The translations under genes and the position numbers were made by a program. Positions 4,993-63,616 of a stretch of DNA of 64,000 bases are shown piece after piece; position 1 is the stretch's first letter, and each line of letters starts with the position of its first letter. The notes beneath the pieces were generated by a model. The model saw nothing but the letters and a program-made list of their open reading frames with translations, ran no database searches and was not told where the DNA came from. The DNA is from a virus: IMG/VR virus record IMGVR_UViG_3300037826_000058, positions 32,001-96,000 of that record; one strand, given 5' to 3'.

Positions 4993-5276
4993 AGGCCCCG
5001 CTCGCCCACAGCGGGCGGGGCAATAGAAAGGGAGAGACAAGTGCCAAAAATTTCAATAGGAGATAAGGTCAGGATAAAGGAATCGCCCTTCGCAGAAGAT
5101 GAAGACCGAGTGCCTCTACCGGTAGATGAAGGATGGGAGGGGTACGTTGAGGCCAAAGGGGTTTGTGGATATACTTTCATAGTAGGCGGCTATGGCTTTT
5201 TCGCGGACGAGGTTGTCCGCGTAGAAGACTGACAATTTAGCATAGGCCCCGCTCGCCCAACAAGCGGGCGGGGCAA
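4993..5276 (+). repeat. two near-identical GC-rich hairpins (4993-5023, 5244-5276) flanking one small ORF
   Basis: AGGCCCCGCTCGCCCA(C/ACA)AGCGGGCGGGGCAA duplicated; no U-tract. Confidence 0.8.
5041..5232 (+). CDS. small KOW/SH3-like hypothetical protein
   Basis: ISIGDKVRIK start; GGGAG RBS. Confidence 0.6.
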   Translation: MPKISIGDKVRIKESPFAEDEDRVPLPVDEGWEGYVEAKGVCGYTFIVGGYGFFADEVVRVED

Positions 5277-5287
5277 AGGAAAAGAAC

Positions 5288-5485
5288 ATGATTCTTTCAG
5301 AAAACAAGTATCATTACATACAGGAGAACCGCTTGCTATGTGGTCTCCCCATTCCAAGGGGGGCAAACGGGCGAACGCTAATCGACAGAACAACCGTGAA
5401 AAAGCGTAGCGAACTTTTCCATGGAGAGATTTGCCCAAAGTGTCGCGCCCTCAAGAGTACCGCTGACCAAGTTATCTACCGATAG
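5288..5485 (+). CDS. small Cys/His hypothetical protein
   Basis: H...LCG...CPKC; AAGGA RBS. Confidence 0.55.
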   Translation: MILSENKYHYIQENRLLCGLPIPRGANGRTLIDRTTVKKRSELFHGEICPKCRALKSTADQVIYR

Positions 5486-5496
5486 ACACGAGAAGC

Positions 5497-5525
5497 TTGA
5501 CAAAGCAAGGCGCTTGGTATATCAT
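5497..5525 (+). promoter_or_regulatory. sigma70-type promoter
   Basis: TTGACA-17nt-TATCAT. Confidence 0.75.
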
Positions 5526-5536
5526 AGGGGGTGATT

Positions 5537-5968
5537 ATGAAATGCGATTGCTGTTACGGTGAAGCAAGCAGGTTACATCTAGTTTACACGGGGTGTCCCT
5601 CCCAGGCATACGAGAGATATTGCACCCCGTGTTGGGAACCCCTCAAAGAGGACATCAAAAACACCACAGTGCCAAAAATTCAAGCAATATTGGACGCCTA
5701 CGAGGACACCACCGGTCACCCCTACTATAGGGCGGGTGACTTGGAAGACATCCGGTACGTGAAGGGTTGGTATCCTCTTCGCATTGGAAACCTAGGATTG
5801 AGAAGGGGGTTAGTAGGCTTTCCCTTCGAGGGGGCAATCATCGAGGTCAGTATCTCCAACCCCGAAGCAGCGCAAAAAATAATTCAAGAAGAGCAGAGAA
5901 TCCGAGAAGGCATGGTGCAAGACTATCACAACTTGTGCCATGCCTTTTCGCATTCTTGCGAAAGGTAA
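5537..5968 (+). CDS. zinc-finger hypothetical protein
   Basis: CDCC...CTPC; downstream of promoter. Confidence 0.65.
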   Translation: MKCDCCYGEASRLHLVYTGCPSQAYERYCTPCWEPLKEDIKNTTVPKIQAILDAYEDTTGHPYYRAGDLEDIRYVKGWYPLRIGNLGLRRGLVGFPFEGAIIEVSISNPEAAQKIIQEEQRIREGMVQDYHNLCHAFSHSCER

Positions 5969-5974
5969 ATTAAA

Positions 5975-6525
5975 TATTAAATGGGTGGCGGCCCTTATCA
6001 CGCCAGCTACACGGCGAAGCTGCTTAAACACCGTGACTGTCTCTGAAAGCATCCCTTGGGAATCTCCGATTAACCTGGGGTGTAGGTGCCAACTAATTCC
6101 TTTCGCTTCCTAGCGGGAGCGAGCCGCGTTGGTCAGCGCTTTTTCTCTCAAGGACTAGAGTGTTCCTCTTCGGTCTGAGAAAAAGTGAACCGAAAGTGTA
6201 GGGCGCTTCAAGCCCCCCCATATCCTCCAACTAGATGGGGTTCGCCACAGAAGGCGATACAAGCGAGTAGGGGTGCAATGCTCAAACGACCTCACTTTGC
6301 AACGAGCCTTGTGTCCGCTATGCCTAGAGCAAAATCAATTGGCGGGGGAGATGGTATAGGCGGCGATTCTTGCTTTTTGTTTGCAAGAGAATCTGGAATT
6401 GGGCACAAATATCGCAACCGCAAACTGCATGGGAGTGGCTTAGGTAATTGAATCCAAGGTTTGAAGGGAGCGGTATTAGTGACACGGGTGGGCATAAAAG
6501 AGATAGGTTATAGCCCGCCCGACAA
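5975..6525 (+). ncRNA. candidate large structured ncRNA (GOLLD/ROOL-like)
   Basis: ~550 nt with no credible ORF; at least 6 stems including a long-range one (6309-6316/6401-6408); G-U wobbles work only on + strand. Confidence 0.6.
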
Positions 6526-6561
6526 TCCAAGAGGGTATAGCAAAAGGATGGTAAGACGCCG

Positions 6562-6990
6562 ATGGGTACAACGATAAGTTCACTCTTGATGATTTGTATT
6601 GCCTTGACAGGCAACGCCACCGTTTGTCTGGAGCAACAATCGGGATACATAATCCAACACGGACAAACGGCTTCTCAGTACGATGCGGGTATTATGCCTA
6701 CCGTCGTACAATATAGATTGGAAGCCGGCGAGGTTGCACCAATAGGTGTTGATGGTTATGTGGCGTACCATGAATGCCAACATATAGGTGCTCTTGTGTT
6801 CCTCAGATTCGACGAGACCGGCTATCGCCCTTATATGATAGCCGACTGCGGTTCACCAGAAGCGAACCAATGGATGAAGGGTGGTGGAATTGTGGTAGAA
6901 GTAGACCACCAAACGGCAAAGCGCCACGGCTTCGTGGGTCGTGGTGCTTCAGTTGATGCAATTATCGTGGAGCCAGGATGGAAGGAATAG
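6562..6990 (+). CDS. secreted RlpA/DPBB-like protein
   Basis: Hydrophobic N-terminus; ASQY...IADC...VEVD pattern resembles double-psi barrel proteins. Confidence 0.45.
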   Translation: MGTTISSLLMICIALTGNATVCLEQQSGYIIQHGQTASQYDAGIMPTVVQYRLEAGEVAPIGVDGYVAYHECQHIGALVFLRFDETGYRPYMIADCGSPEANQWMKGGGIVVEVDHQTAKRHGFVGRGASVDAIIVEPGWKE

Positions 6991-8912: not shown

Positions 8913-11783
8913 ATGAATGAAAAATCGTTACTGCAACAACGCTATCTTCAGCCTGGCGAGGAGACCTTCGCTGATCTGGCACGAAGGGTTGCTGACTGGG
9001 TTGAAATCAAAGAGGTCTATGAAGCCATAAAAAGCAAGTGTTTTATCCCCTCTCGGATGCCCTACATGGGCACCGAGTTTCCTTTTTCCAGTAGCTGTTT
9101 CGTCCTCGGCCCCATTGAGGACGATTTGGCGTCCATTATGAATACGCTGAGGGACGCGACGCTGGTGCAGAAGATGGGCGGGGGCTGTATTGGTGGTGAG
9201 AGTGTTGTTATCACCGACCAAGGCCCTATGCCAATAAAGCAGCTAGTAGCTAGGAAAGACCCTGATATTAAAGTTCTTTCCTACAACCCAGACAGCAAGA
9301 CCATGGAGTATTCCACGGTGACCAAGTGGCACACTGTGGACACAGAACCGAAACGAGTTTACAAAATTAACTTTTCTCATGGTAATGGGCATGGTGTTCA
9401 GGCTAGCATGACGGTTAGTGATTGGCACCCGTTCTTTGTTTTTGACGGTGAACAAGTGATACAGGTAAGGGCTGATGACTTAGAGCCTGGCATGGTTATT
9501 ATAGGTTCGTCAGAGTATCGTCATGAATATGACGAGTGGGGTTGGGCTTTGGGTTACATAGCTGGTGATGGTGCTATTGACTACAGCAAAAAGGAAAAAT
9601 ACCCAAGAGTTAGAATATGTGACGACAGTGAGGAGGCTGTTAGTCGTGTTGCCAAGATCATGGGGGTTCCATATTCTCGGTCTAAGGATAAACGATTTCA
9701 GGTTGATATGTGGGAGTGTGCTAGCTACTCCGATGTGGCGGGTAGGATTAGAGACAGTTTTGGAGGATACAAGACTTGTTACGATAAATGTATCCCCGAA
9801 GAAGTTTGGAGCAGCTCACCGTCATGTCGGTTTTCATTCATAGTGGGGCACCTAGATGCAGACGGATGGTATAATGAGGGAAAGAGCCGCTTCCAAGCCT
9901 CGACTGTGAGTAAGAAACTTGCCTTTGGTTTAATGGCCTTGGCTGGAAGCCTCGGCATACGCACCAAGGTCAGGTTTAGAGAATCACGCCATGAAAACGA
10001 ACAGCCCATTTGGGAAGTACGATATATGACCACTCAATCTTTCATTGAATCTGTAATGGACTGCAGTGCTAAGTACAATGACATAAAACCTCCGTGTCAG
10101 GTAATGGGGTCGCTACAATTATCAATGACGTGGCGAAAGGGTTTGTCAAGCAACGGAATAGAACTAGGTACTCAAGCATGGCGTGCTCGAACCCCACTGC
10201 TGGGCAGAGAGCAATCGCTTATAAACTGGCTACAAAACGGGATTGCCACAAGGGACGTTGCTGGTGATATAATTGAGGCTTGCAACGAGCCTGAGCTGGC
10301 TCAGTCTGTGCGAGCATGTCAAATTGTCCATTCTGTGGAGCAAGAAGATGGTGACATCTTGTACGACTTAACTGTTCCCAGCAATCAAACATATCTTGCA
10401 TCTCCTCCAGGTACAGGGGCTTTTGTAGTGGTACATAACACTGGATACAGCTTCTCTAGGTTACGTCCAGAGGGTGATCTTATCCGAAAGAGCGGTGGAG
10501 AGGCGTCCGGCCCAGTCTCCTTTATGAGACTCTACCACGAGGCGATGACCGTGGTGAAGCGGGCTGGCAAGAAGCACGCCGCTCAAATGGGAATACTCAA
10601 TGTATCTCACCCTGACATCGTGAAATTTGTCAGGTGCAAGGAAGAAGAGGGTCGCCTTAGCACTTTCAATATCAGCGTGGCGGTCTCCGATGATTTTATG
10701 GAAGCTGTTCGCAATGATAGTGATTGGGACTTAACCTTTGGCGGGAAAGTATATGATACCATCCCCGCCAAGGAGCTATATCATTTGATCGCAGAGCACG
10801 CCTGGAGGAACGGTGAGCCGGGTGTGATATTCATAGACGAGATCAATCGCCAGAATCCATTCCCCGTGCCTATTGAGGCATGCAATGCGTGCGGAGAAAA
10901 GCCTCTGCCGTATAATTGCAGTTGCAACCTTGCATCAATAAACTTGTCCAAGTTTGTTGATGATAATGGTATCATAGACTGGAATGGAATAGAGGAACAC
11001 ACCCGCTTGGGTGTAAGATTCCTTGACGTTGCCATTGATAGGGCGTGGTGGCCCCTTGAGGAAGTAGAAAGAAACACCAAGAAGTATCGTAACATCGGCC
11101 TAGGAGTGATGGGCTGGGCCGATATGCTCATCAAGATGAGAATCCCCTACGACAGCGACACCGCTGTCGCCTTGGCATCCGGCTTGATGGCTTTCATCAA
11201 TGACGTAGCCCACGATGAAAGTCAGGGGCGTAACACCACCTTAACATCAATCGCCCCGACGGGAAGCATATCCATGCTTGCCGGTTGCTCCCCATCGATA
11301 GAACCCCTGTTCGGGTTGGTCACAAACAAACAGACCAATCTAGGTCTATCCCAAGAGATACATTCTGAGTTTAAGAAGCGTGCCGAGGAATTGGGCATTG
11401 CATCGGAGGCTTTGTGGGCCGATGTATCAGCCCAGCAATCTGTCCAACATTTAGACATACCTCAGGGCGACAAGGAAATTTTCAAAACCGCAATGGAAAT
11501 TCCTTGGGAGAGGCACCTTATGATGCAAGCCGCTTTTCAAGAAAGCGTTGATTCGGCGGTCTCCAAGACGATCAACTTGGAAAACTCGGCTACAATCCAA
11601 GACGTAAAGGACGCCATTATGTTGGCCGAAGCACTGGGGTGCAAGTCCTTAACGCTTTACAGAGATGGTAGCCGTAGTGAGCAGGTATACGTGCGCACCT
11701 GCCCCGATTGTGAGGCTGAACTTGTGTCAGAGTCGGGGTGCTGGTCGTGCCCTGATTGTGGTTATTCGCTCTGCAGCTTGTAA
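8913..11783 (+). CDS. nrdJ: class II (AdoCbl-dependent) ribonucleotide reductase containing an intein
   Basis: SSCFVL, GGG|TG, SGPVSFM, GEPGVIF, NACGEKPL, CNLASINL, SIAPTGSISM, SAVSKTIN, YRDGSR, C-terminal Cys cluster; no nrdB nearby. Confidence 0.9.
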   Translation: MNEKSLLQQRYLQPGEETFADLARRVADWVEIKEVYEAIKSKCFIPSRMPYMGTEFPFSSSCFVLGPIEDDLASIMNTLRDATLVQKMGGGCIGGESVVITDQGPMPIKQLVARKDPDIKVLSYNPDSKTMEYSTVTKWHTVDTEPKRVYKINFSHGNGHGVQASMTVSDWHPFFVFDGEQVIQVRADDLEPGMVIIGSSEYRHEYDEWGWALGYIAGDGAIDYSKKEKYPRVRICDDSEEAVSRVAKIMGVPYSRSKDKRFQVDMWECASYSDVAGRIRDSFGGYKTCYDKCIPEEVWSSSPSCRFSFIVGHLDADGWYNEGKSRFQASTVSKKLAFGLMALAGSLGIRTKVRFRESRHENEQPIWEVRYMTTQSFIESVMDCSAKYNDIKPPCQVMGSLQLSMTWRKGLSSNGIELGTQAWRARTPLLGREQSLINWLQNGIATRDVAGDIIEACNEPELAQSVRACQIVHSVEQEDGDILYDLTVPSNQTYLASPPGTGAFVVVHNTGYSFSRLRPEGDLIRKSGGEASGPVSFMRLYHEAMTVVKRAGKKHAAQMGILNVSHPDIVKFVRCKEEEGRLSTFNISVAVSDDFMEAVRNDSDWDLTFGGKVYDTIPAKELYHLIAEHAWRNGEPGVIFIDEINRQNPFPVPIEACNACGEKPLPYNCSCNLASINLSKFVDDNGIIDWNGIEEHTRLGVRFLDVAIDRAWWPLEEVERNTKKYRNIGLGVMGWADMLIKMRIPYDSDTAVALASGLMAFINDVAHDESQGRNTTLTSIAPTGSISMLAGCSPSIEPLFGLVTNKQTNLGLSQEIHSEFKKRAEELGIASEALWADVSAQQSVQHLDIPQGDKEIFKTAMEIPWERHLMMQAAFQESVDSAVSKTINLENSATIQDVKDAIMLAEALGCKSLTLYRDGSRSEQVYVRTCPDCEAELVSESGCWSCPDCGYSLCSL
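9186..10439 (+). mobile_element. intein with LAGLIDADG homing endonuclease (418 aa)
   Basis: Starts CIGGESVV, block B SDWHPF, ends VVVHN followed by Thr; LAGLIDADG-like ALGYIAGDG and IVGHLDADG. Confidence 0.92.
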
Positions 11784-58513: not shown

Positions 58514-58540
58514 GCTTACTCCCCCCCCAAAAAAAATGAA

Positions 58541-58612
58541 TACCCCCAGCTGGACTCGAACCAGCATCTACGGTTTAGGAAACCGTGGCTCTTTCCATTG
58601 AGCTATGGGGGC
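58541..58612 (-). tRNA. tRNA-Arg(CCU)
   Basis: Cloverleaf; ACGGT-TT CCT AA-ACCGT; GTTCGAG T-loop. Confidence 0.9.
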
Positions 58613-58618
58613 ACTGCA

Positions 58619-58894
58619 TCACGAATACAAAGGATTAAGTTCCTCTTCCTCTTCCTCTGCAACCCATACCGCAAACCTCATTGTTTTGTTGAGGTTACGG
58701 AAGGAAACATCACCGTCATACGGCGCGGTGTCTCGTTCCCATCTCCCTTGTGCGTTCACCAGCACAACACATCTCATGTCGTACTTGGTGATATACTCTA
58801 GGGCGTCCTGTGGCGTCCTAAATACCAACGACCCTTCCTTTTTGATGATGGTCTCGTGGTCACCCACAGCGTCGGAACAGTAACTTGCTAGCAT
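58619..58894 (-). CDS. hypothetical protein
   Basis: TAATG coupling to thyA. Confidence 0.55.
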   Translation of the reverse strand: MLASYCSDAVGDHETIIKKEGSLVFRTPQDALEYITKYDMRCVVLVNAQGRWERDTAPYDGDVSFRNLNKTMRFAVWVAEEEEEELNPLYS

Positions 58895-59739
58895 TATTCC
58901 CCCTTATACTTCTTGGCCTTCTCCAGGATACTTGGAATGGCTTCTTCCATATACGGTTTCATTTTGTCGTAACGATAGGTTCTATCGGTAAATCTTCTGT
59001 TTGTTATTGCCTTGAGGAATACATTATTTACCTCTTCCATGTAGGAGCCATAGATGTGGTAGCTATCGGCCTGATGAACATAGCGCCCCACGCGAACCTC
59101 ACGCCCAGCATGCTCGCTGACTCGATCAGCGATTTTTTCCTGTAACTTCACAAATGCGAACATATTCATAAAAGCGGCTTTGTAGGCATCGTTTGAACGC
59201 ATTCGGACGTTGGTGTTCAAATACCACACCCCATCCGTATCAGGGAGAATACGACACCAGATGCTTTGTAAGCACGCTGGGTCGTGGCAAAACGGGTCTT
59301 CCCAAGGTTTCCAGGTAATCGCCTGGGCGCGACGCGTGTAGGGAGCTTGGGCTAGCTTGCACGCCATTACTTCTATTTGATTGTAAAGCTCATCAATCCC
59401 CGGTACAGAGTATGTAAACAAGCGCTCGTGGTACGTATACTCCCACCGAGTATCGTTAGGGTCATCAGGGTCGCGAACCCAGTGGTCTTTAATGCCATCC
59501 CTGACTTCCATTGTGTACTCTTGTAGGTCTTGTAATCCGCATGGTATCATGCGGCTTATCATGGGTTCAGCTAGGGGGCTGTCTACCACGATAGTCATTG
59601 TAGCGTCTAGCGATGGGGGGTCTTCAGGTTTATCATACTCCGTTTGGATTGGGGTTCCGCTATGATAAACCTTTAAGACAGACTTCTCCCAAGCAGAAGG
59701 AAGATTACTCCCCTGAACGCGAAGAACTGGTATATACAT
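58894..59739 (-). CDS. thyA: thymidylate synthase (ThyA family)
   Basis: YTYHERL, TRRAQAITW, PACLQ, RMRSNDA..A..N, SYHIY. Confidence 0.88.
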   Translation of the reverse strand: MYIPVLRVQGSNLPSAWEKSVLKVYHSGTPIQTEYDKPEDPPSLDATMTIVVDSPLAEPMISRMIPCGLQDLQEYTMEVRDGIKDHWVRDPDDPNDTRWEYTYHERLFTYSVPGIDELYNQIEVMACKLAQAPYTRRAQAITWKPWEDPFCHDPACLQSIWCRILPDTDGVWYLNTNVRMRSNDAYKAAFMNMFAFVKLQEKIADRVSEHAGREVRVGRYVHQADSYHIYGSYMEEVNNVFLKAITNRRFTDRTYRYDKMKPYMEEAIPSILEKAKKYKGE

Positions 59740-59744
59740 TAATA

Positions 59745-60932
59745 TTATTTCCCCTTGTAGTGATTGCATCCCATTTCAGGGTAAACTACCCTGTGAATAG
59801 TAGGAACACCCCATCCAAATGTATTGTCCTTTCCTGGTTCTCCTAGGTCACAAGCACTGTCTTTAAGCGCATCGTAAACCTCGTCAGGGGAGAACTCTGG
59901 ATATAAAGACTTGATTACTCCAGCCGCCGCAGAAACGTGTGGGGTCGCCATTGATGTTCCCGATTTATACCACGTTTCCGCGGGGGACGTGTAGGCATAC
60001 ACACAAAACGAAGGTGCTACAAAATCTAATTTCTCACCGTAATTACTGAAGTATGCGAGGTCTAAGTCTTCATCGATCCCGCCTACCGATACGACACTAT
60101 CAAATCCAGCGGGATATACTAATACATCAATATGATGATTACCAGCCGCCGCCACTGGTAACACACCATTTTCCCTTGCACGCTTCAGTGCGTTTTCCAC
60201 CATTGACCACGCTTCGCTTTGAGGGTCTCCATATCCCCCAAACGACATAGACATTACATCTACGTCGTTCTCGGTACACCAATCGATTGCCAAAATGATT
60301 GCCCTGAGGGAGCACCTTCCTCCCTCACAGACTTTTAGATGTACCCCCTCACAGTGCGGGCAAATCCCTGCAATTCCCGTCTCATTATGAGGGGCGGCAC
60401 TAATGCTTTGCACATGGTAACCATGTGTATCATCGTCAGTGGTGTCAGCATTCCCCGTGAAATAGTTCCAGCCCGTAATGTCATTGGTGGGCTGGTCTTC
60501 AATTGGTGACCAACCACTGTCCAGAAACGCAATACGGGCCACTTGGGTATAGGAACGCGTGTAAACAGACGGAACTTCTTCTACCCCCATCATCTGAGGC
60601 CCGTACTGGAGCTCTATGTGTTCGTCGTTTAGCGTAGGCCTTGGTGTGGGGGTAGGAGTAGGACGTGTTGGTACAGGAATAATCTCACTTGCTTTGAAAA
60701 CCAACGGGAGGTAGTGGTAGTAACGCCCTTCTTGCTGAGTATAGATTTCTGGCAAGGGAAAACATTCTTGTAAGCGAATAACTTCCTTCTTTTCAACAAA
60801 CCGATACCCATACCGAGCATTGCTGTCTTCAACCAACACATAATCGTCATCGATAAACCCTCCATCCGCCTTAACAGGGGTAAAAATCAAGAGGGTTACT
60901 AAGACAGCCAAAACCAAAGATAACCTGCGCAT
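59745..60932 (-). CDS. secreted subtilisin-like (S8) protease
   Basis: Signal peptide; FLDSG, HGYHV, AAAGN, SGTSMATPHV; YLPLVFK + PT-rich linker. Confidence 0.9.
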   Translation of the reverse strand: MRRLSLVLAVLVTLLIFTPVKADGGFIDDDYVLVEDSNARYGYRFVEKKEVIRLQECFPLPEIYTQQEGRYYHYLPLVFKASEIIPVPTRPTPTPTPRPTLNDEHIELQYGPQMMGVEEVPSVYTRSYTQVARIAFLDSGWSPIEDQPTNDITGWNYFTGNADTTDDDTHGYHVQSISAAPHNETGIAGICPHCEGVHLKVCEGGRCSLRAIILAIDWCTENDVDVMSMSFGGYGDPQSEAWSMVENALKRARENGVLPVAAAGNHHIDVLVYPAGFDSVVSVGGIDEDLDLAYFSNYGEKLDFVAPSFCVYAYTSPAETWYKSGTSMATPHVSAAAGVIKSLYPEFSPDEVYDALKDSACDLGEPGKDNTFGWGVPTIHRVVYPEMGCNHYKGK

Positions 60933-61216
60933 ATTACGCCTCCCCAGATAGCAACCGTCAACAGTTGAATGAATAAAGCTACAGACGCGGTAACCCACCA
61001 CCCCCACAAAATATCAGGGTAGCGTCGCTTTATTAGCTTCCCCAGCCCATAAAGAACCACGGGAATAATAACCTTAACAGCCACGAGGGGAAGATACCCA
61101 TAAGATTGCCAAACCGAGACAGCAAGGGGGTTAGCCTCAGCACCAACCCCCCACGCGTAGGTGACAATTAAGTCAACTGCTTGCAAGAACAAGTATAATA
61201 GAGTTAATCCCACCAT
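60899..61216 (-). CDS. DUF5658-like membrane protein
   Basis: LQAVDLIVT...EANPL motif, 3 TMs. Confidence 0.65.
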   Translation of the reverse strand: MVGLTLLYLFLQAVDLIVTYAWGVGAEANPLAVSVWQSYGYLPLVAVKVIIPVVLYGLGKLIKRRYPDILWGWWVTASVALFIQLLTVAIWGGVICAGYLWFWLS

Positions 61217-61683
61217 TGCTCGAACCCCTTCAACAGGCTAATAATCCTCTCTTTGTCTTCTTGCCTCTTTATCTCCGAAATGTACCGTGCTATGCGGTAT
61301 ACACGCTCGGCGGCTTCTTGCCTTCCTGGGCTGTTGACCTTGGAGAATTCTGGCCCAGTATATTGGTATAGCCCGTTCTCTATCGGCTCGAACCCCATAG
61401 AAATATCCCCAAAATGCTCCTCGAAGGATATAGACCTCAATGTTTCGTCTAGGTAATCGTCTGCTATGTATCTATCGATAGCATCAGCCAGCTCTTCAAG
61501 TTCGTTGGCAATATCGTCGGCTGATGTTGATAAACCGCTTTCCCTGAAAGAACGAGCCATCTTTCGAGACTTAAAGGATATAATCTCGAAAAGATAAGCC
61601 CAATCCCAGTCTCTGTCTCCCCAGATAACAGGAGCCCAAGCGATTAGGTTCTTTATCCCTCTAAATATCTTATCAAACAACAT
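61204..61683 (-). CDS. conserved phage hypothetical protein
   Basis: WAPVIWGDRDWD...WWD end. Confidence 0.7.
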   Translation of the reverse strand: MLFDKIFRGIKNLIAWAPVIWGDRDWDWAYLFEIISFKSRKMARSFRESGLSTSADDIANELEELADAIDRYIADDYLDETLRSISFEEHFGDISMGFEPIENGLYQYTGPEFSKVNSPGRQEAAERVYRIARYISEIKRQEDKERIISLLKGFEQWWD

Positions 61684-61888
61684 TGGCCTCCGAGTTATCA
61701 CCAACGACGTTTCCGTCTCCGGTGATACTAACATTGCGAGGTTGTGCGAGCGCAAGCGCGGAATTCTTGGGGTATAGTTCACCGCACTTGGGGCAAGCCG
61801 TGGGCTTTTTCATAACAGCATATCCATTCCCCTCTTCAGCATGACTTGCATAGAACTTGGCTTTACATTTGTCGCATACAACAATCAT
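61673..61888 (-). CDS. zinc-ribbon protein
   Basis: CDKC...CPKC; GGAGGG RBS. Confidence 0.55.
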   Translation of the reverse strand: MIVVCDKCKAKFYASHAEEGNGYAVMKKPTACPKCGELYPKNSALALAQPRNVSITGDGNVVGDNSEANVV

Positions 61889-61899
61889 TTCAGACCCTC

Positions 61900-62448
61900 C
61901 TAGCTTGTCCAATTAGCGTCTTCTTTAACGCGTTTATCCCAACACTTCTCACAGTAAATACCAGCAAAGTGTCGCCGGTTCTGTGCTTCACTAGCATCTA
62001 TAAGCTTACCACAGGTGCTACAATGCACCTGACCTTCTCGCCACTTCTGCGTGGCATCGAGAATACGGTTTACAGTCTCTTTTGGCATTTTCTCGTCAGG
62101 GTCAGATAGAAATCTGACTCCCACCAACTTTGTCTGTGTAGGTGACCACAGCGTCAGTCCCCACAAATTGGTATAGACGTATCTTGACTTGGGCTTATCC
62201 CCCAGCATCTCAAACCCATCGAATTCCTCCGACAAACGATGCTCTTCCGTCTTTCCTGGTATGACCATCTTCTGGGTCACCATCAGGGGGTATTCCCTAT
62301 GCCCATCCCTAAACCTTAATCTAGGATTATCATAGGGGTCTCCAATAGCGGCCCTCAATCTTCTTTCCACCTTGGGCAGTTCTTCGGTGAACCACTCCAT
62401 ATCCAATCGGTGAAGGTCGTTTCTATCAATAATAACCTTAGCGTCCAT
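61900..62448 (-). CDS. hypothetical protein with C-terminal zinc finger
   Basis: CSTC...CEKC; GAGGAGGTG RBS. Confidence 0.65.
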   Translation of the reverse strand: MDAKVIIDRNDLHRLDMEWFTEELPKVERRLRAAIGDPYDNPRLRFRDGHREYPLMVTQKMVIPGKTEEHRLSEEFDGFEMLGDKPKSRYVYTNLWGLTLWSPTQTKLVGVRFLSDPDEKMPKETVNRILDATQKWREGQVHCSTCGKLIDASEAQNRRHFAGIYCEKCWDKRVKEDANWTS

Positions 62449-62471
62449 AATCACCTCCTCACTCATTGCCA

Positions 62472-62500
62472 ATTATACACCAAAACCCCCTGGCTGTCAA
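62472..62500 (-). promoter_or_regulatory. consensus sigma70 promoter
   Basis: TTGACA-17nt-TATAAT on - strand. Confidence 0.85.
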
Positions 62501-62516
62501 GGGGGTTCAAAAAAAA

Positions 62517-62690
62517 TTAAGAGGGTTTTTGCTTTTCTCTAACCGCCTCTTCAAGAGTACGATCATTCAGACAGTCATTACATACGTCACACCCTGCTTG
62601 GATAGGTTTAACTTTATCACATCTAGAACACCGTTTTTCTATGTACGATGCTCTATAAATCCCTTCAATTGTATGGTATTTTCTTTTCAC
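62517..62690 (-). CDS. 57-aa zinc-finger protein (not in ORF track)
   Basis: CSRC...CNDC; GGGGGAG RBS before GTG. Confidence 0.5.
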   Translation of the reverse strand: MKRKYHTIEGIYRASYIEKRCSRCDKVKPIQAGCDVCNDCLNDRTLEEAVREKQKPS

Positions 62691-62718
62691 ACTCCCCCCT
62701 GTTTTCTTAACCTACAGA

Positions 62719-62791
62719 TATGCCCAGCGGGGATCGAACCCGCGACCTCTGGCTCTTCAGGCCAGCGCTCTACCAACTGAGCTACAGGCAT
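62719..62791 (-). tRNA. tRNA-Phe(GAA)
   Basis: CTGGC-CT GAA GA-GCCAG anticodon arm; GTTCGAT. Confidence 0.9.
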
Positions 62792-62801
62792 ACGTCACCG
62801 A

Positions 62802-62875
62802 TGACCGTGGTGGGAGTCGAACCCACAACATCTCGGTTTTGAACCGAGCCTCTCTGCCAATTGGAGCACACGGTC
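62802..62875 (-). tRNA. tRNA-Leu(CAA), short variable arm
   Basis: CTCGG-TT CAA AA-CCGAG; Leu-type D-loop. Confidence 0.8.
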
Positions 62876-62876
62876 A

Positions 62877-62947
62877 AGCTCTGAGCAGGATTTGAACCTG
62901 CGTCTTCGGTGTACGAAACCGATGTACTTCCACTGTACTATCAGAGC
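62877..62947 (-). tRNA. tRNA-Thr(CGU)
   Basis: TCGGT-TT CGT AC-ACCGA; GTTCAAA. Confidence 0.85.
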
Positions 62948-62950
62948 AAA

Positions 62951-63023
62951 AGCCCCTAGATGGAATCGAACCATCGACCTCACCCTTACCACGGGTGCGC
63001 TCTGCCAACTGAGCTATAAGGGC
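62951..63023 (-). tRNA. tRNA-Thr(GGU)
   Basis: CACCC-GT GGT AA-GGGTG; GTTCGAT. Confidence 0.9.
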
Positions 63024-63026
63024 ACA

Positions 63027-63098
63027 AGCCCCTACCTGGAATCGAACCAGGGTAACCACTTTACAAGAGTGGTGGTTTGCCGATTAACCTATAGGGGC
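63027..63098 (-). tRNA. tRNA-Thr(UGU)
   Basis: CCACT-CT TGT AA-AGTGG; GTTCGAT. Confidence 0.9.
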
Positions 63099-63102
63099 AA
63101 AA

Positions 63103-63174
63103 AGACTTGGGCGGGATTTGAACCCGCATACAAGGGTTTTGCAGACCCCCGCCTATCCATTCGGCCACCAAGTC
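63103..63174 (-). tRNA. tRNA-Cys(GCA)
   Basis: GGGGT-CT GCA AA-ACCCT; GTTCAAA. Confidence 0.9.
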
Positions 63175-63176
63175 AT

Positions 63177-63223
63177 AGAATTTAGCGCAGGATACTCCCC
63201 CGCTTTAGCGGGGAGAAGTTGAC
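63177..63223 (+). mobile_element. 47-bp IS200/IS605 fused-end remnant (PATE-like)
   Basis: AGAATTTAGCGCAGGATACTCCCCCGCTTTAGCGGGGAGAAGTTGAC: left-end-like start, shared GCTTTAGCG hairpin, right-end-like finish. Confidence 0.6.
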
Positions 63224-63519
63224 CGTTCTTCACAATCAAAAAATACGGGGATGGTCTGTGGGCCATCTACTGTTTCGATGTATTCTCCATCCTCGTAGAT
63301 GTCTACGTACTCTTCCTCTGGTACATACCACCCTACAGCACTCGTGTAAGCACCGCTCACACGCCACTCTCTATCCGTGATGCTGTTGTAGCATACCAAA
63401 GCAACCTTTTCGCTGGGCCTAGGCCAAGGTGTGCTTGTAGGAGGTTGAGTGACACTATACTCTGGACTAGAGCAAGACGTGAAGATCAAAAAAAGCAATA
63501 CAATTAGTTTTTTCATCAT
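63205..63519 (-). CDS. lipoprotein
   Basis: MMKKLIVLLFLIFTSC lipobox; its stop lies within the IS remnant. Confidence 0.65.
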   Translation of the reverse strand: MMKKLIVLLFLIFTSCSSPEYSVTQPPTSTPWPRPSEKVALVCYNSITDREWRVSGAYTSAVGWYVPEEEYVDIYEDGEYIETVDGPQTIPVFFDCEERSTSPR

Positions 63520-63531
63520 TCTCCTTATTAG

Positions 63532-63616
63532 CGGGGCCGGTGAGACTTGAACTCACAACACCGAAAGGTGCAACGCCTTAGCAGGGCGCTCCAATGCCAA
63601 TTATGGTTACGGCCCC
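63532..63616 (-). tRNA. tRNA-Ser(GCU)
   Basis: GCGCC-CT GCT AA-GGCGT; long variable arm CACC-TTTC-GGTG. Confidence 0.9.

Follow-up and report, generated by a model that had tools for sequence, protein, structure and literature searches.

A gene-free stretch in the early region of an uncultured phage very probably encodes a conserved structured RNA of a family absent from Rfam 15

A stretch of DNA without genes in the early region of a phage genome very probably encodes a real, conserved and structured RNA, as judged by comparing it with two relatives. The RNA would be read from the + strand, from position 5979 to about 6371-6395 of the window, the 64,000-nucleotide stretch of DNA that was analysed (bases 32001-96000 of a 119-kb IMG/VR phage contig with a CheckV completeness of 91%). 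Comparison of the three copies points to at least nine helices within ~300 nt of RNA, and the invariant blocks GGTGCCAAC, CCGAAAGTGTA and ACAAGCRAGTAGG occur in this order in all three. At roughly even confidence, we favour the reading that this is an RNA of an uncatalogued family that forms the tail of an early transcript and acts in trans as a discrete folded RNA.

The gap (5969-6561) lies within a + strand block of early and replication genes, which includes those for an FtsK-like protein, RNR with an intein, DnaB and an exonuclease. It is bounded by two + strand ORFs, and its immediate setting is as follows.

5497-5525, + strand: nearest upstream promoter, of sigma-70 type (TTGACA-17-TATCAT)
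5531-5968, + strand: upstream orphan ORF of 145 aa, its stop codon ~11 nt 5' of the RNA
6562-6990, + strand: downstream orphan ORF of 142 aa, secreted-looking, with a signal-peptide-like N-terminus

The flanking proteins have no relatives in IMG/VR and match only themselves among 5.8 billion proteins. Near-identical DNA was found in tidal-flat metagenome runs only, the eight matches listed all being DNA runs and none RNA, and the aligned DNA contigs differ from the gap at just three single bases (6075, 6347 and 6396). Other features of this genome are also of note. Further upstream, 5019-5297 looks like a population-variable cassette, where contigs of four other tidal-flat runs diverge or break off (breakpoints at ~5019-5023, 5246 and 5275-5284) and one contig omits 273 nt (5023 to 5297). 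An intein with a LAGLIDADG homing endonuclease interrupts the gene for the RNR large subunit (8913-11783, + strand). Near-consensus sigma-70 promoters (TTGACA-17-TATAAT) occur by the dozen across the genome, for example at 5497, 7744, 8583, 49456, 56394 and 62500 of the window; GTG often precedes the -10 element, and many of these promoters carry a TTTTAGG/TTTAAGG element ~10 nt upstream of the -35.

The gap is non-coding, in keeping with an earlier note on this DNA, which had seen no credible gene there. Both its period-3 power ratio and its longest ORF are at the level of shuffled sequence: the ratio is 1.55 (shuffle mean 1.51 ± 0.58; genome median 3.26; 6% of genome windows as low), and the longest open stretch is 90 codons (shuffle mean 90.2; 45% of shuffles equal it). 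A sole sizeable ORF is present (6185-6451; 88 aa), with a translation rich in R, G, P and S. Its codon log-odds of -0.08 are intermediate on a scale where coding sequence scores 0.16 ± 0.06 and non-coding frames -0.36 ± 0.17, and a search of 5.8 billion proteins matched it only to itself, through a 57-aa gene call made on this sequence. Furthermore, the homologues described below do not conserve a reading frame. The segment between the conserved blocks B3 and B4 measures 96, 36 and 80 nt in the three copies, which therefore have no reading frame in common, and the frame that is open in the copy on contig G003 meets a stop immediately 3' of B3 in the window copy. Coding readings of the gap were dropped in view of the missing period-3 signal, an ORF length at chance and the lack of protein relatives for any ORF.

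The folding energy of the gap is not above background. Its + strand folds with a z of -2.17 (2 of 100 shuffles as good) and its minus strand with a z of -0.30. Eight 593-nt coding controls, folded on the sense strand, gave z values of -2.68, -3.67, -6.85, -2.44, -2.75, -1.73, -3.04 and -1.43, six of them lower than that of the gap. Neighbouring genes show the same asymmetry between strands, so that it is a compositional effect and not informative about the gap in particular. Sliding windows of 150 nt reach -3 to -4.6 in the flanking genes and are near zero at 6150-6350. No local fold in the region is more stable than that of a 25-nt inverted repeat (z -4.56), 84% complementary (5897-5921/5932-5956), in the 3' end of ORF 5531-5968. 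These values carry a methodological caution, in that homologues alone, and not folding energy, set the RNA apart from neighbouring coding sequence.

Relatives of the gap are few. Neither the gap nor either homologue had a blastn match among 50,697 phage records, and no paralogue of the gap was found in the phage's own genome. No IMG/VR loci came from peptide patterns of the FtsK-like protein or of DnaB, and the major capsid protein led to seven, among them G003. Five or six of the records of these capsid loci were searched with the gap DNA, both flanking proteins, the FtsK-like protein and covariance model R2 (see below), with nothing found save G003. This 64-kb IMG/VR phage contig has a capsid protein 62% identical and a DnaB 28% identical to those of the window phage, as well as local synteny. 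Its copy of the RNA lies in a 405-nt ORF-free stretch upstream of DnaB, between a radical-SAM gene and an SSB gene, and has exact blocks in common with the gap, with hairpins between them that differ in sequence. Two of the common blocks were combined into a pattern, which found a third copy on L021, a 1.8-kb metagenome contig, where the neighbours are small orphan ORFs. On that contig, near-identical hairpins at 44-64 and 888-910 (CATCCTTTAC-A/G-TAAAGGAT) flank an ORF-free stretch of ~820 nt, of which the RNA occupies the first half only (the second half being ~530-890). Further pattern scans gave chance matches or none. In viral contigs, the pattern of blocks B4 and B6 matched G003 singly, that of B1, B2 and B3 matched G003 and five chance sites in GC-rich coding DNA, and that of B3 and B4 gave two chance matches; in genome contigs, a strict B4 and B6 pattern gave none and a 19-mer common to G003 and L021 gave five chance matches. 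The family found in this way has three members, two of them on IMG/VR contigs.

Covariance models were trained on G003 and L021 alone, aligned as two halves with hand-written helices (alignments A5 and A6), giving R1 (146 positions, 24 pairs) and R2 (110 positions, 20 pairs). The two training copies are close to each other, with 80-82% column identity. In a search of 139 kb on both strands (window, remaining phage genome and the two source loci), R2 matched window 5979-6093 on the + strand with 50.6 bits and E 2.1e-11 (next non-training hit E 0.065), and R1 matched 6190-6371 on the + strand with 32.0 bits and E 9.7e-9 (no other non-training hit at E<=10); these E-values are rough, owing to a short calibration, though the margin is large. 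The three copies were then compared for compensatory changes. A plain MAFFT alignment of the 5' domain (A3) has 20 pairs in three helices, 95% paired, with 10 double changes, against 3.6 ± 1.5 in shuffles (0 of 500 reach it) and 0-2 with the partners slid, and a model-fitted alignment of the 3' domain (A7) has 24 pairs in five helices, 98.4% paired, with 14 double changes, against 5.1 ± 1.7 in shuffles (0 of 500) and 2-4 with the partners slid; these counts come from three sequences only, A7 leans towards the structure, and the shuffle count is not a probability. Changes on both sides that keep the pair were thus seen in 24 of the 44 proposed pairs, over eight helices, a count that includes helices Pi and Pj, which are seen in G003 and L021 only; for Pa, Pb, Pc, Pf, Pg and Ph the figure is 21 of 34. 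The parts of the window copy are these.

5979-6093, + strand: 5' domain, comprising hairpins Pa, Pb and Pc and then block B3; matched by R2
5986-5990/6001-6005, + strand: hairpin Pa (TGGCG/CGCCA) with the 10-nt loop GCCCTTATCA; 3 of 5 pairs double-changed
6010-6014/6031-6035, + strand: hairpin Pb (CACGG/CCGTG); 2 of 5 pairs double-changed, 100% of cells paired
6049-6059/6074-6083, + strand: hairpin Pc, ~10 bp with an internal loop; 5 of 10 pairs double-changed
6085-6093, + strand: block B3, GGTGCCAAC, invariant in all three copies
6085-6093/6128-6133, + strand: proposed helix P3, B3 with GTTGGT; one-sided changes, no double covariation
6103-6110/6115-6122, + strand: hairpin Pd, TCGCTTCC-TAGC-GGGAGCGA, in the variable domain that P3 would enclose
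6134-6189, + strand: long hairpin, CTTTTTCTC/GAGAAAAAG with an inner stem; inverted repeat I4, also in the MFE fold
6190-6200, + strand: block B4, CCGAAAGTGTA (invariant CCGAAAGUGUA in the RNA), invariant in all three copies
6201-6204/6212-6215, + strand: hairpin Pf
6216-6221/6235-6240, + strand: hairpin Pg, with a 13-nt loop
6243-6246/6253-6256, + strand: hairpin Ph
6259-6271, + strand: block B6, ACAAGCGAGTAGG (ACAAGCRAGUAGG in the RNA), invariant except for one R
6272-6346, + strand: divergent stretch in place of the relatives' hairpins Pi and Pj; R1 deletes Pi and inserts 72 nt
6347-6371, + strand: possible 3' conserved block, GGCGGCGATTCTT, weakly indicated by its high-posterior alignment to the 3' end of R1
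6365-6393, + strand: hairpin that may be the 3' end of the RNA; it has no U-run and was not scored as terminator-like
6394-6561, + strand: perhaps a spacer or the 5' UTR of ORF 6562-6990, with no promoter-like site

Within the 5' domain, the Pa loop is GCCGATATAA in both G003 and L021, and the Pb loop begins with a conserved CGAAGC. One position of Pc is a U-G wobble in both relatives and C-G in the window copy, where this hairpin has two unpaired cells in the MAFFT register. The adjacent, tightly packed hairpins Pf, Pg and Ph have double changes in 11 of their 14 pairs. A kissing contact of the Pa loop (CCGAU) with that of Pg (AUCGG) was considered and rejected: it fits G003, L021 in part, and the window copy not at all.

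The P3 strand GGUGCCAAC is proposed to pair ~35-95 nt downstream, enclosing a variable domain. Its partner strands in the three copies are GTTGGT, ATTGGTGCC and GTTGTCGCC, which pair at 6, 8 and 8 of 9 positions, respectively. At the site of Pd there is a different small hairpin in G003 and a longer insert in L021, and the hairpin at 6134-6189 is inserted in the P3 3' strand of the window copy only, being absent from G003 and L021. The window copy also has a weak terminator-like hairpin, GCGTTGGTCAGCGC followed by T5 (6126-6144), which overlaps the P3 3' strand and the 5' arm of the 6134-6189 hairpin. It has GTTGG in common with the P3 3' strand, so that two exclusive folds are possible, in the window copy only. 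Blocks B4 and B6 may also face each other. In the sarcin-ricin/loop-E (S-turn) motif, one strand reads AGUA then GG and the opposite strand CC then GAA, and AGTA-GG of B6 set opposite CC-GAA of B4 would have this layout. This is a local motif rather than a family, all positions of the B4/B6 pairing are invariant, and the CC of B4 might have the GG of B3 as its partner instead. The counterparts of the 6347-6371 block are GGGCGAACTT in G003 and GGGGGCGAACTG in L021. The positions behind helix P3, the loop-E reading of B4 and B6, and the block at 6347-6371 are invariant or change on one side only, and all three remain tentative.

The core measures ~390 nt in the window (5979-6371), ~270-350 nt in G003 and ~340-400 nt in L021. 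A terminator-like hairpin follows it at ~40-55 nt in both G003 and L021, and the window copy is without a good one. No significant similarity was found between 6394-6561 and the 3' parts of the relatives (z -1.2 and 0.0).

Part of what the earlier note had proposed from the letters of this DNA agrees with these results. Its multi-helix non-coding RNA is upheld by homology and compensatory changes, and not by the folding-energy and G-U arguments given for it. Covariation among homologues, which it had named as a check, was found in the double-changed pairs of the three copies, and its assignment to the + strand is borne out by both covariance models, which match that strand only, and by the Pc wobble in two of three copies. 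Its stems at 6103-6122, ~6137-6147/6177-6187 (6139-6147/6177-6185 in the sequence), ~6216-6240 and ~6242-6257 are present as parts of the RNA, the last two covarying in the relatives. Those at 6309-6316/6401-6408 and 6485-6493/6513-6521 fall in a part without detectable similarity to the relatives, and the extent of ~550 nt was an overestimate, as the conserved element spans only ~5979-6371 and the 3' third of the proposed ~550 nt lies outside it.

The setting of the RNA suggests how it could be made. No promoter-like site was found between the promoter at 5497-5525 and the RNA or anywhere inside the gap, nor was there one just upstream of the G003 and L021 copies. In the window copy and in G003, where the upstream gene is visible, the RNA starts ~6-11 nt after the upstream stop codon. 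Since it would lack a promoter of its own and starts just after a stop codon, the RNA is probably made as the tail of the early sigma-70 transcript from 5497. Its 3' end would then arise by termination or trimming at a hairpin downstream of the core, and the discrete folded RNA would act, probably, through its invariant unpaired blocks, as possible sites for a bound protein or for tertiary or quaternary contacts. The neighbours differ for each copy, with orphans in the window, a radical-SAM gene upstream and an SSB gene downstream in G003, and small orphan ORFs in L021, which argues against control of one particular gene. We think that a discrete RNA acting in trans is more likely than a switch for a single gene, and the promoter, the start, the terminator-like hairpins and the differing neighbours are the reasons for favouring a folded particle in its own right.

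Different explanations can be proposed for the same observations. The RNA could act in cis as a leader (a riboswitch or attenuator, for example) in which the core senses a ligand, protein or RNA and sets read-through of the downstream hairpin. The terminator-like hairpins past the core in G003 and L021 are consistent with this, as is the absence of a promoter-like site between the G003 hairpin and the SSB gene. The window copy continues into ORF 6562-6990 with no promoter between, and its 6126-6144 hairpin and P3 are possibly mutually exclusive folds; without a good terminator after the core, this copy may simply be a long leader of that ORF. We nevertheless consider a cis-acting leader rather unlikely, given that the three copies have unrelated genes downstream (a secreted-looking orphan in the window, SSB in G003, small orphan ORFs in L021) and that the L021 hairpin is ~450 nt from the next gene, which has a promoter-like site at 921-948. 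Rfam riboswitch and T-box models match none of the three copies, and a core of ~300 nt is large for an aptamer. It is distinctly improbable that the RNA serves in processing or stability, as a catalytic RNA that cuts the early polycistronic transcript or as a nuclease-resistant 3' structure that guards the upstream message. Its start within ~6-11 nt of the upstream stop codon and its lack of a promoter would suit such an element, and ribozyme cores typically have invariant unpaired blocks amid covarying helices, as seen here. Against this, known ribozyme families match none of the three copies, and the upstream genes are unrelated (an orphan in the window, a radical-SAM enzyme in G003).

The proposal that the gap acts at the level of DNA (as a replication origin, packaging site or protein-binding site), or is a decayed gene, with incidental hairpins, is very hard to sustain. 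In its favour are the large size of this gene-free stretch, its place in the early/replication region and a GC content of 50.6% against 48.2% for the genome. Compensatory changes, though, preserve Watson-Crick and G-U pairs on one strand only, and a decayed gene is at odds with the lack of a period-3 signal and of protein relatives for any ORF. The gap has no iterons or other significant repeats and no paralogue elsewhere in the genome, and the cumulative GC skew has its maximum near 47 kb of the genome, with a local minimum near 24 kb, at the site of the largest gap. A replication origin was rejected, since there are no repeats in the gap and the skew extremes lie elsewhere.

The RNA does not belong to a catalogued family that we could recognize. 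Rfam 15 was searched by cmscan (4227 models), at E<=10 with window 5800-6700 and the G003 copy and at E<=5 with that of L021, and the three copies gave only chance rows for microRNAs, snoRNAs and riboswitch fragments. One such row, for preQ1-II in G003 (20.2 bits against a gathering score of 47; E 0.88), lies on the terminator hairpins and the SSB ribosome-binding site, off the core. At gathering thresholds the window contains tRNAs only, and ARAGORN likewise found tRNAs only and no tmRNA. As there is no Rfam 15 match in the three copies, GOLLD, ROOL, introns, RNase P and the known riboswitches are all excluded as its identity. Group I and II introns, RNase P and tmRNA were rejected because they gave no Rfam rows and the flanking ORFs are separate genes that differ between copies; resemblances to fragments of cobalamin, lysine and glycine riboswitches, of RNase P, of group I introns and of 16S rRNA were considered and rejected because no Rfam model matches. 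The earlier note had described the RNA as GOLLD-like, and the Rfam search that it suggested does not bear this out, as the models for GOLLD (RF01998) and ROOL (RF03087) match none of the three copies. Of the two segments that it likened to the GOLLD 3' domain, GCGAGTAG falls inside B6, the most conserved block, and GCAAACTGCATGGGAGTGG is not conserved. Its remark that no tRNA is adjacent is correct: the nearest, at 58540, is 52 kb away, and the stretches searched around the G003 and L021 copies showed none next to the RNA. The window has eight tRNAs (58540-63616, minus strand), including a minus-strand cluster at 62717-63616, and a further 29 Rfam tRNA hits lie downstream (L011 27-9618, minus strand). 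A HEARO RNA hit (RF02033; 91.7 bits, gathering score 83) lies outside the window on the minus strand at L009 120-341 (genome C1 120-341), 120 nt from the contig end. It is directly 3' of a 548-aa minus-strand ORF (L009 347-1993) that has no Pfam match, HNH and RuvC domains included.

A divergent GOLLD or ROOL, or some other large RNA already catalogued (group I/II intron, RNase P, tmRNA, OLE or HEARO), is thus scarcely credible. In its favour, the RNA is phage-borne and large with many helices, the earlier note pointed to GOLLD-like segments, and the genome has many tRNAs and a HEARO RNA elsewhere. Set against these points are the chance rows in Rfam 15, the absence of a tmRNA in the ARAGORN search, the distance of 52 kb to a tRNA, and size. 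In the available part of a recent preprint, many GOLLD members are given as longer than 800 nt, with a 3' region that is universally conserved, and the ROOL example as 659 nt (bioRxiv 10.1101/2024.12.08.627333). The same part describes ROOL as often near tRNA islands and forming an octameric cage, and GOLLD, ROOL and OLE as RNA-only assemblies by cryo-EM (bioRxiv 10.1101/2024.12.08.627333).

Large, intricately folded RNAs without an assigned function are rare, and each further one is a candidate for a new RNA architecture or chemistry. The window phage and G003 are distant (capsid 62%, DnaB 28%), and three perfectly conserved unpaired blocks despite this distance point to strong selection on the fold. 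It is possible, as a tentative suggestion, that the RNA represents a new class of ornate phage RNA, a defined three-dimensional and perhaps self-assembling or catalytic particle, made early in infection and built by its invariant junction strands and packed hairpins. If so, it would be of the same sort as GOLLD, ROOL and OLE, yet unrelated to them. Its size is within the reach of in vitro transcription, chemical probing and cryo-EM.

Several known systems offer points of comparison. Riboswitch and T-box leaders resemble the new RNA in having a folded core and then a terminator-like hairpin, as in two of the three copies, and differ in that the RNA has no Rfam match, unrelated downstream genes and a core above the usual aptamer size. 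The candidates of a structured-RNA survey of IMG/VR are similar as conserved intergenic regions of uncultured phages identified through covariation; that survey, in its available part, retained only motifs with matches in three or more unique IMG/VR regions (Fremin et al. 2023, PMC10690425), whereas the new RNA was found in two IMG/VR contigs. The family is absent from Rfam 15 and, as far as the available part of the survey goes, may already be listed among its candidates (PMC10690425). ROOL (RF03087) is likewise a phage or prophage RNA of several hundred nt; its model has no match here, and the octameric cage, in the part of the preprint cited, belongs to ROOL. GOLLD (RF01998) is similar in being phage-borne, large and multi-helix, with conserved unpaired blocks between covarying helices. 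The new RNA differs from it in a core of ~320-420 nt, against more than 800 nt for many GOLLD members in the available part of the preprint, in not lying beside tRNAs, and in being conserved in both halves, with the far 3' part the least conserved.
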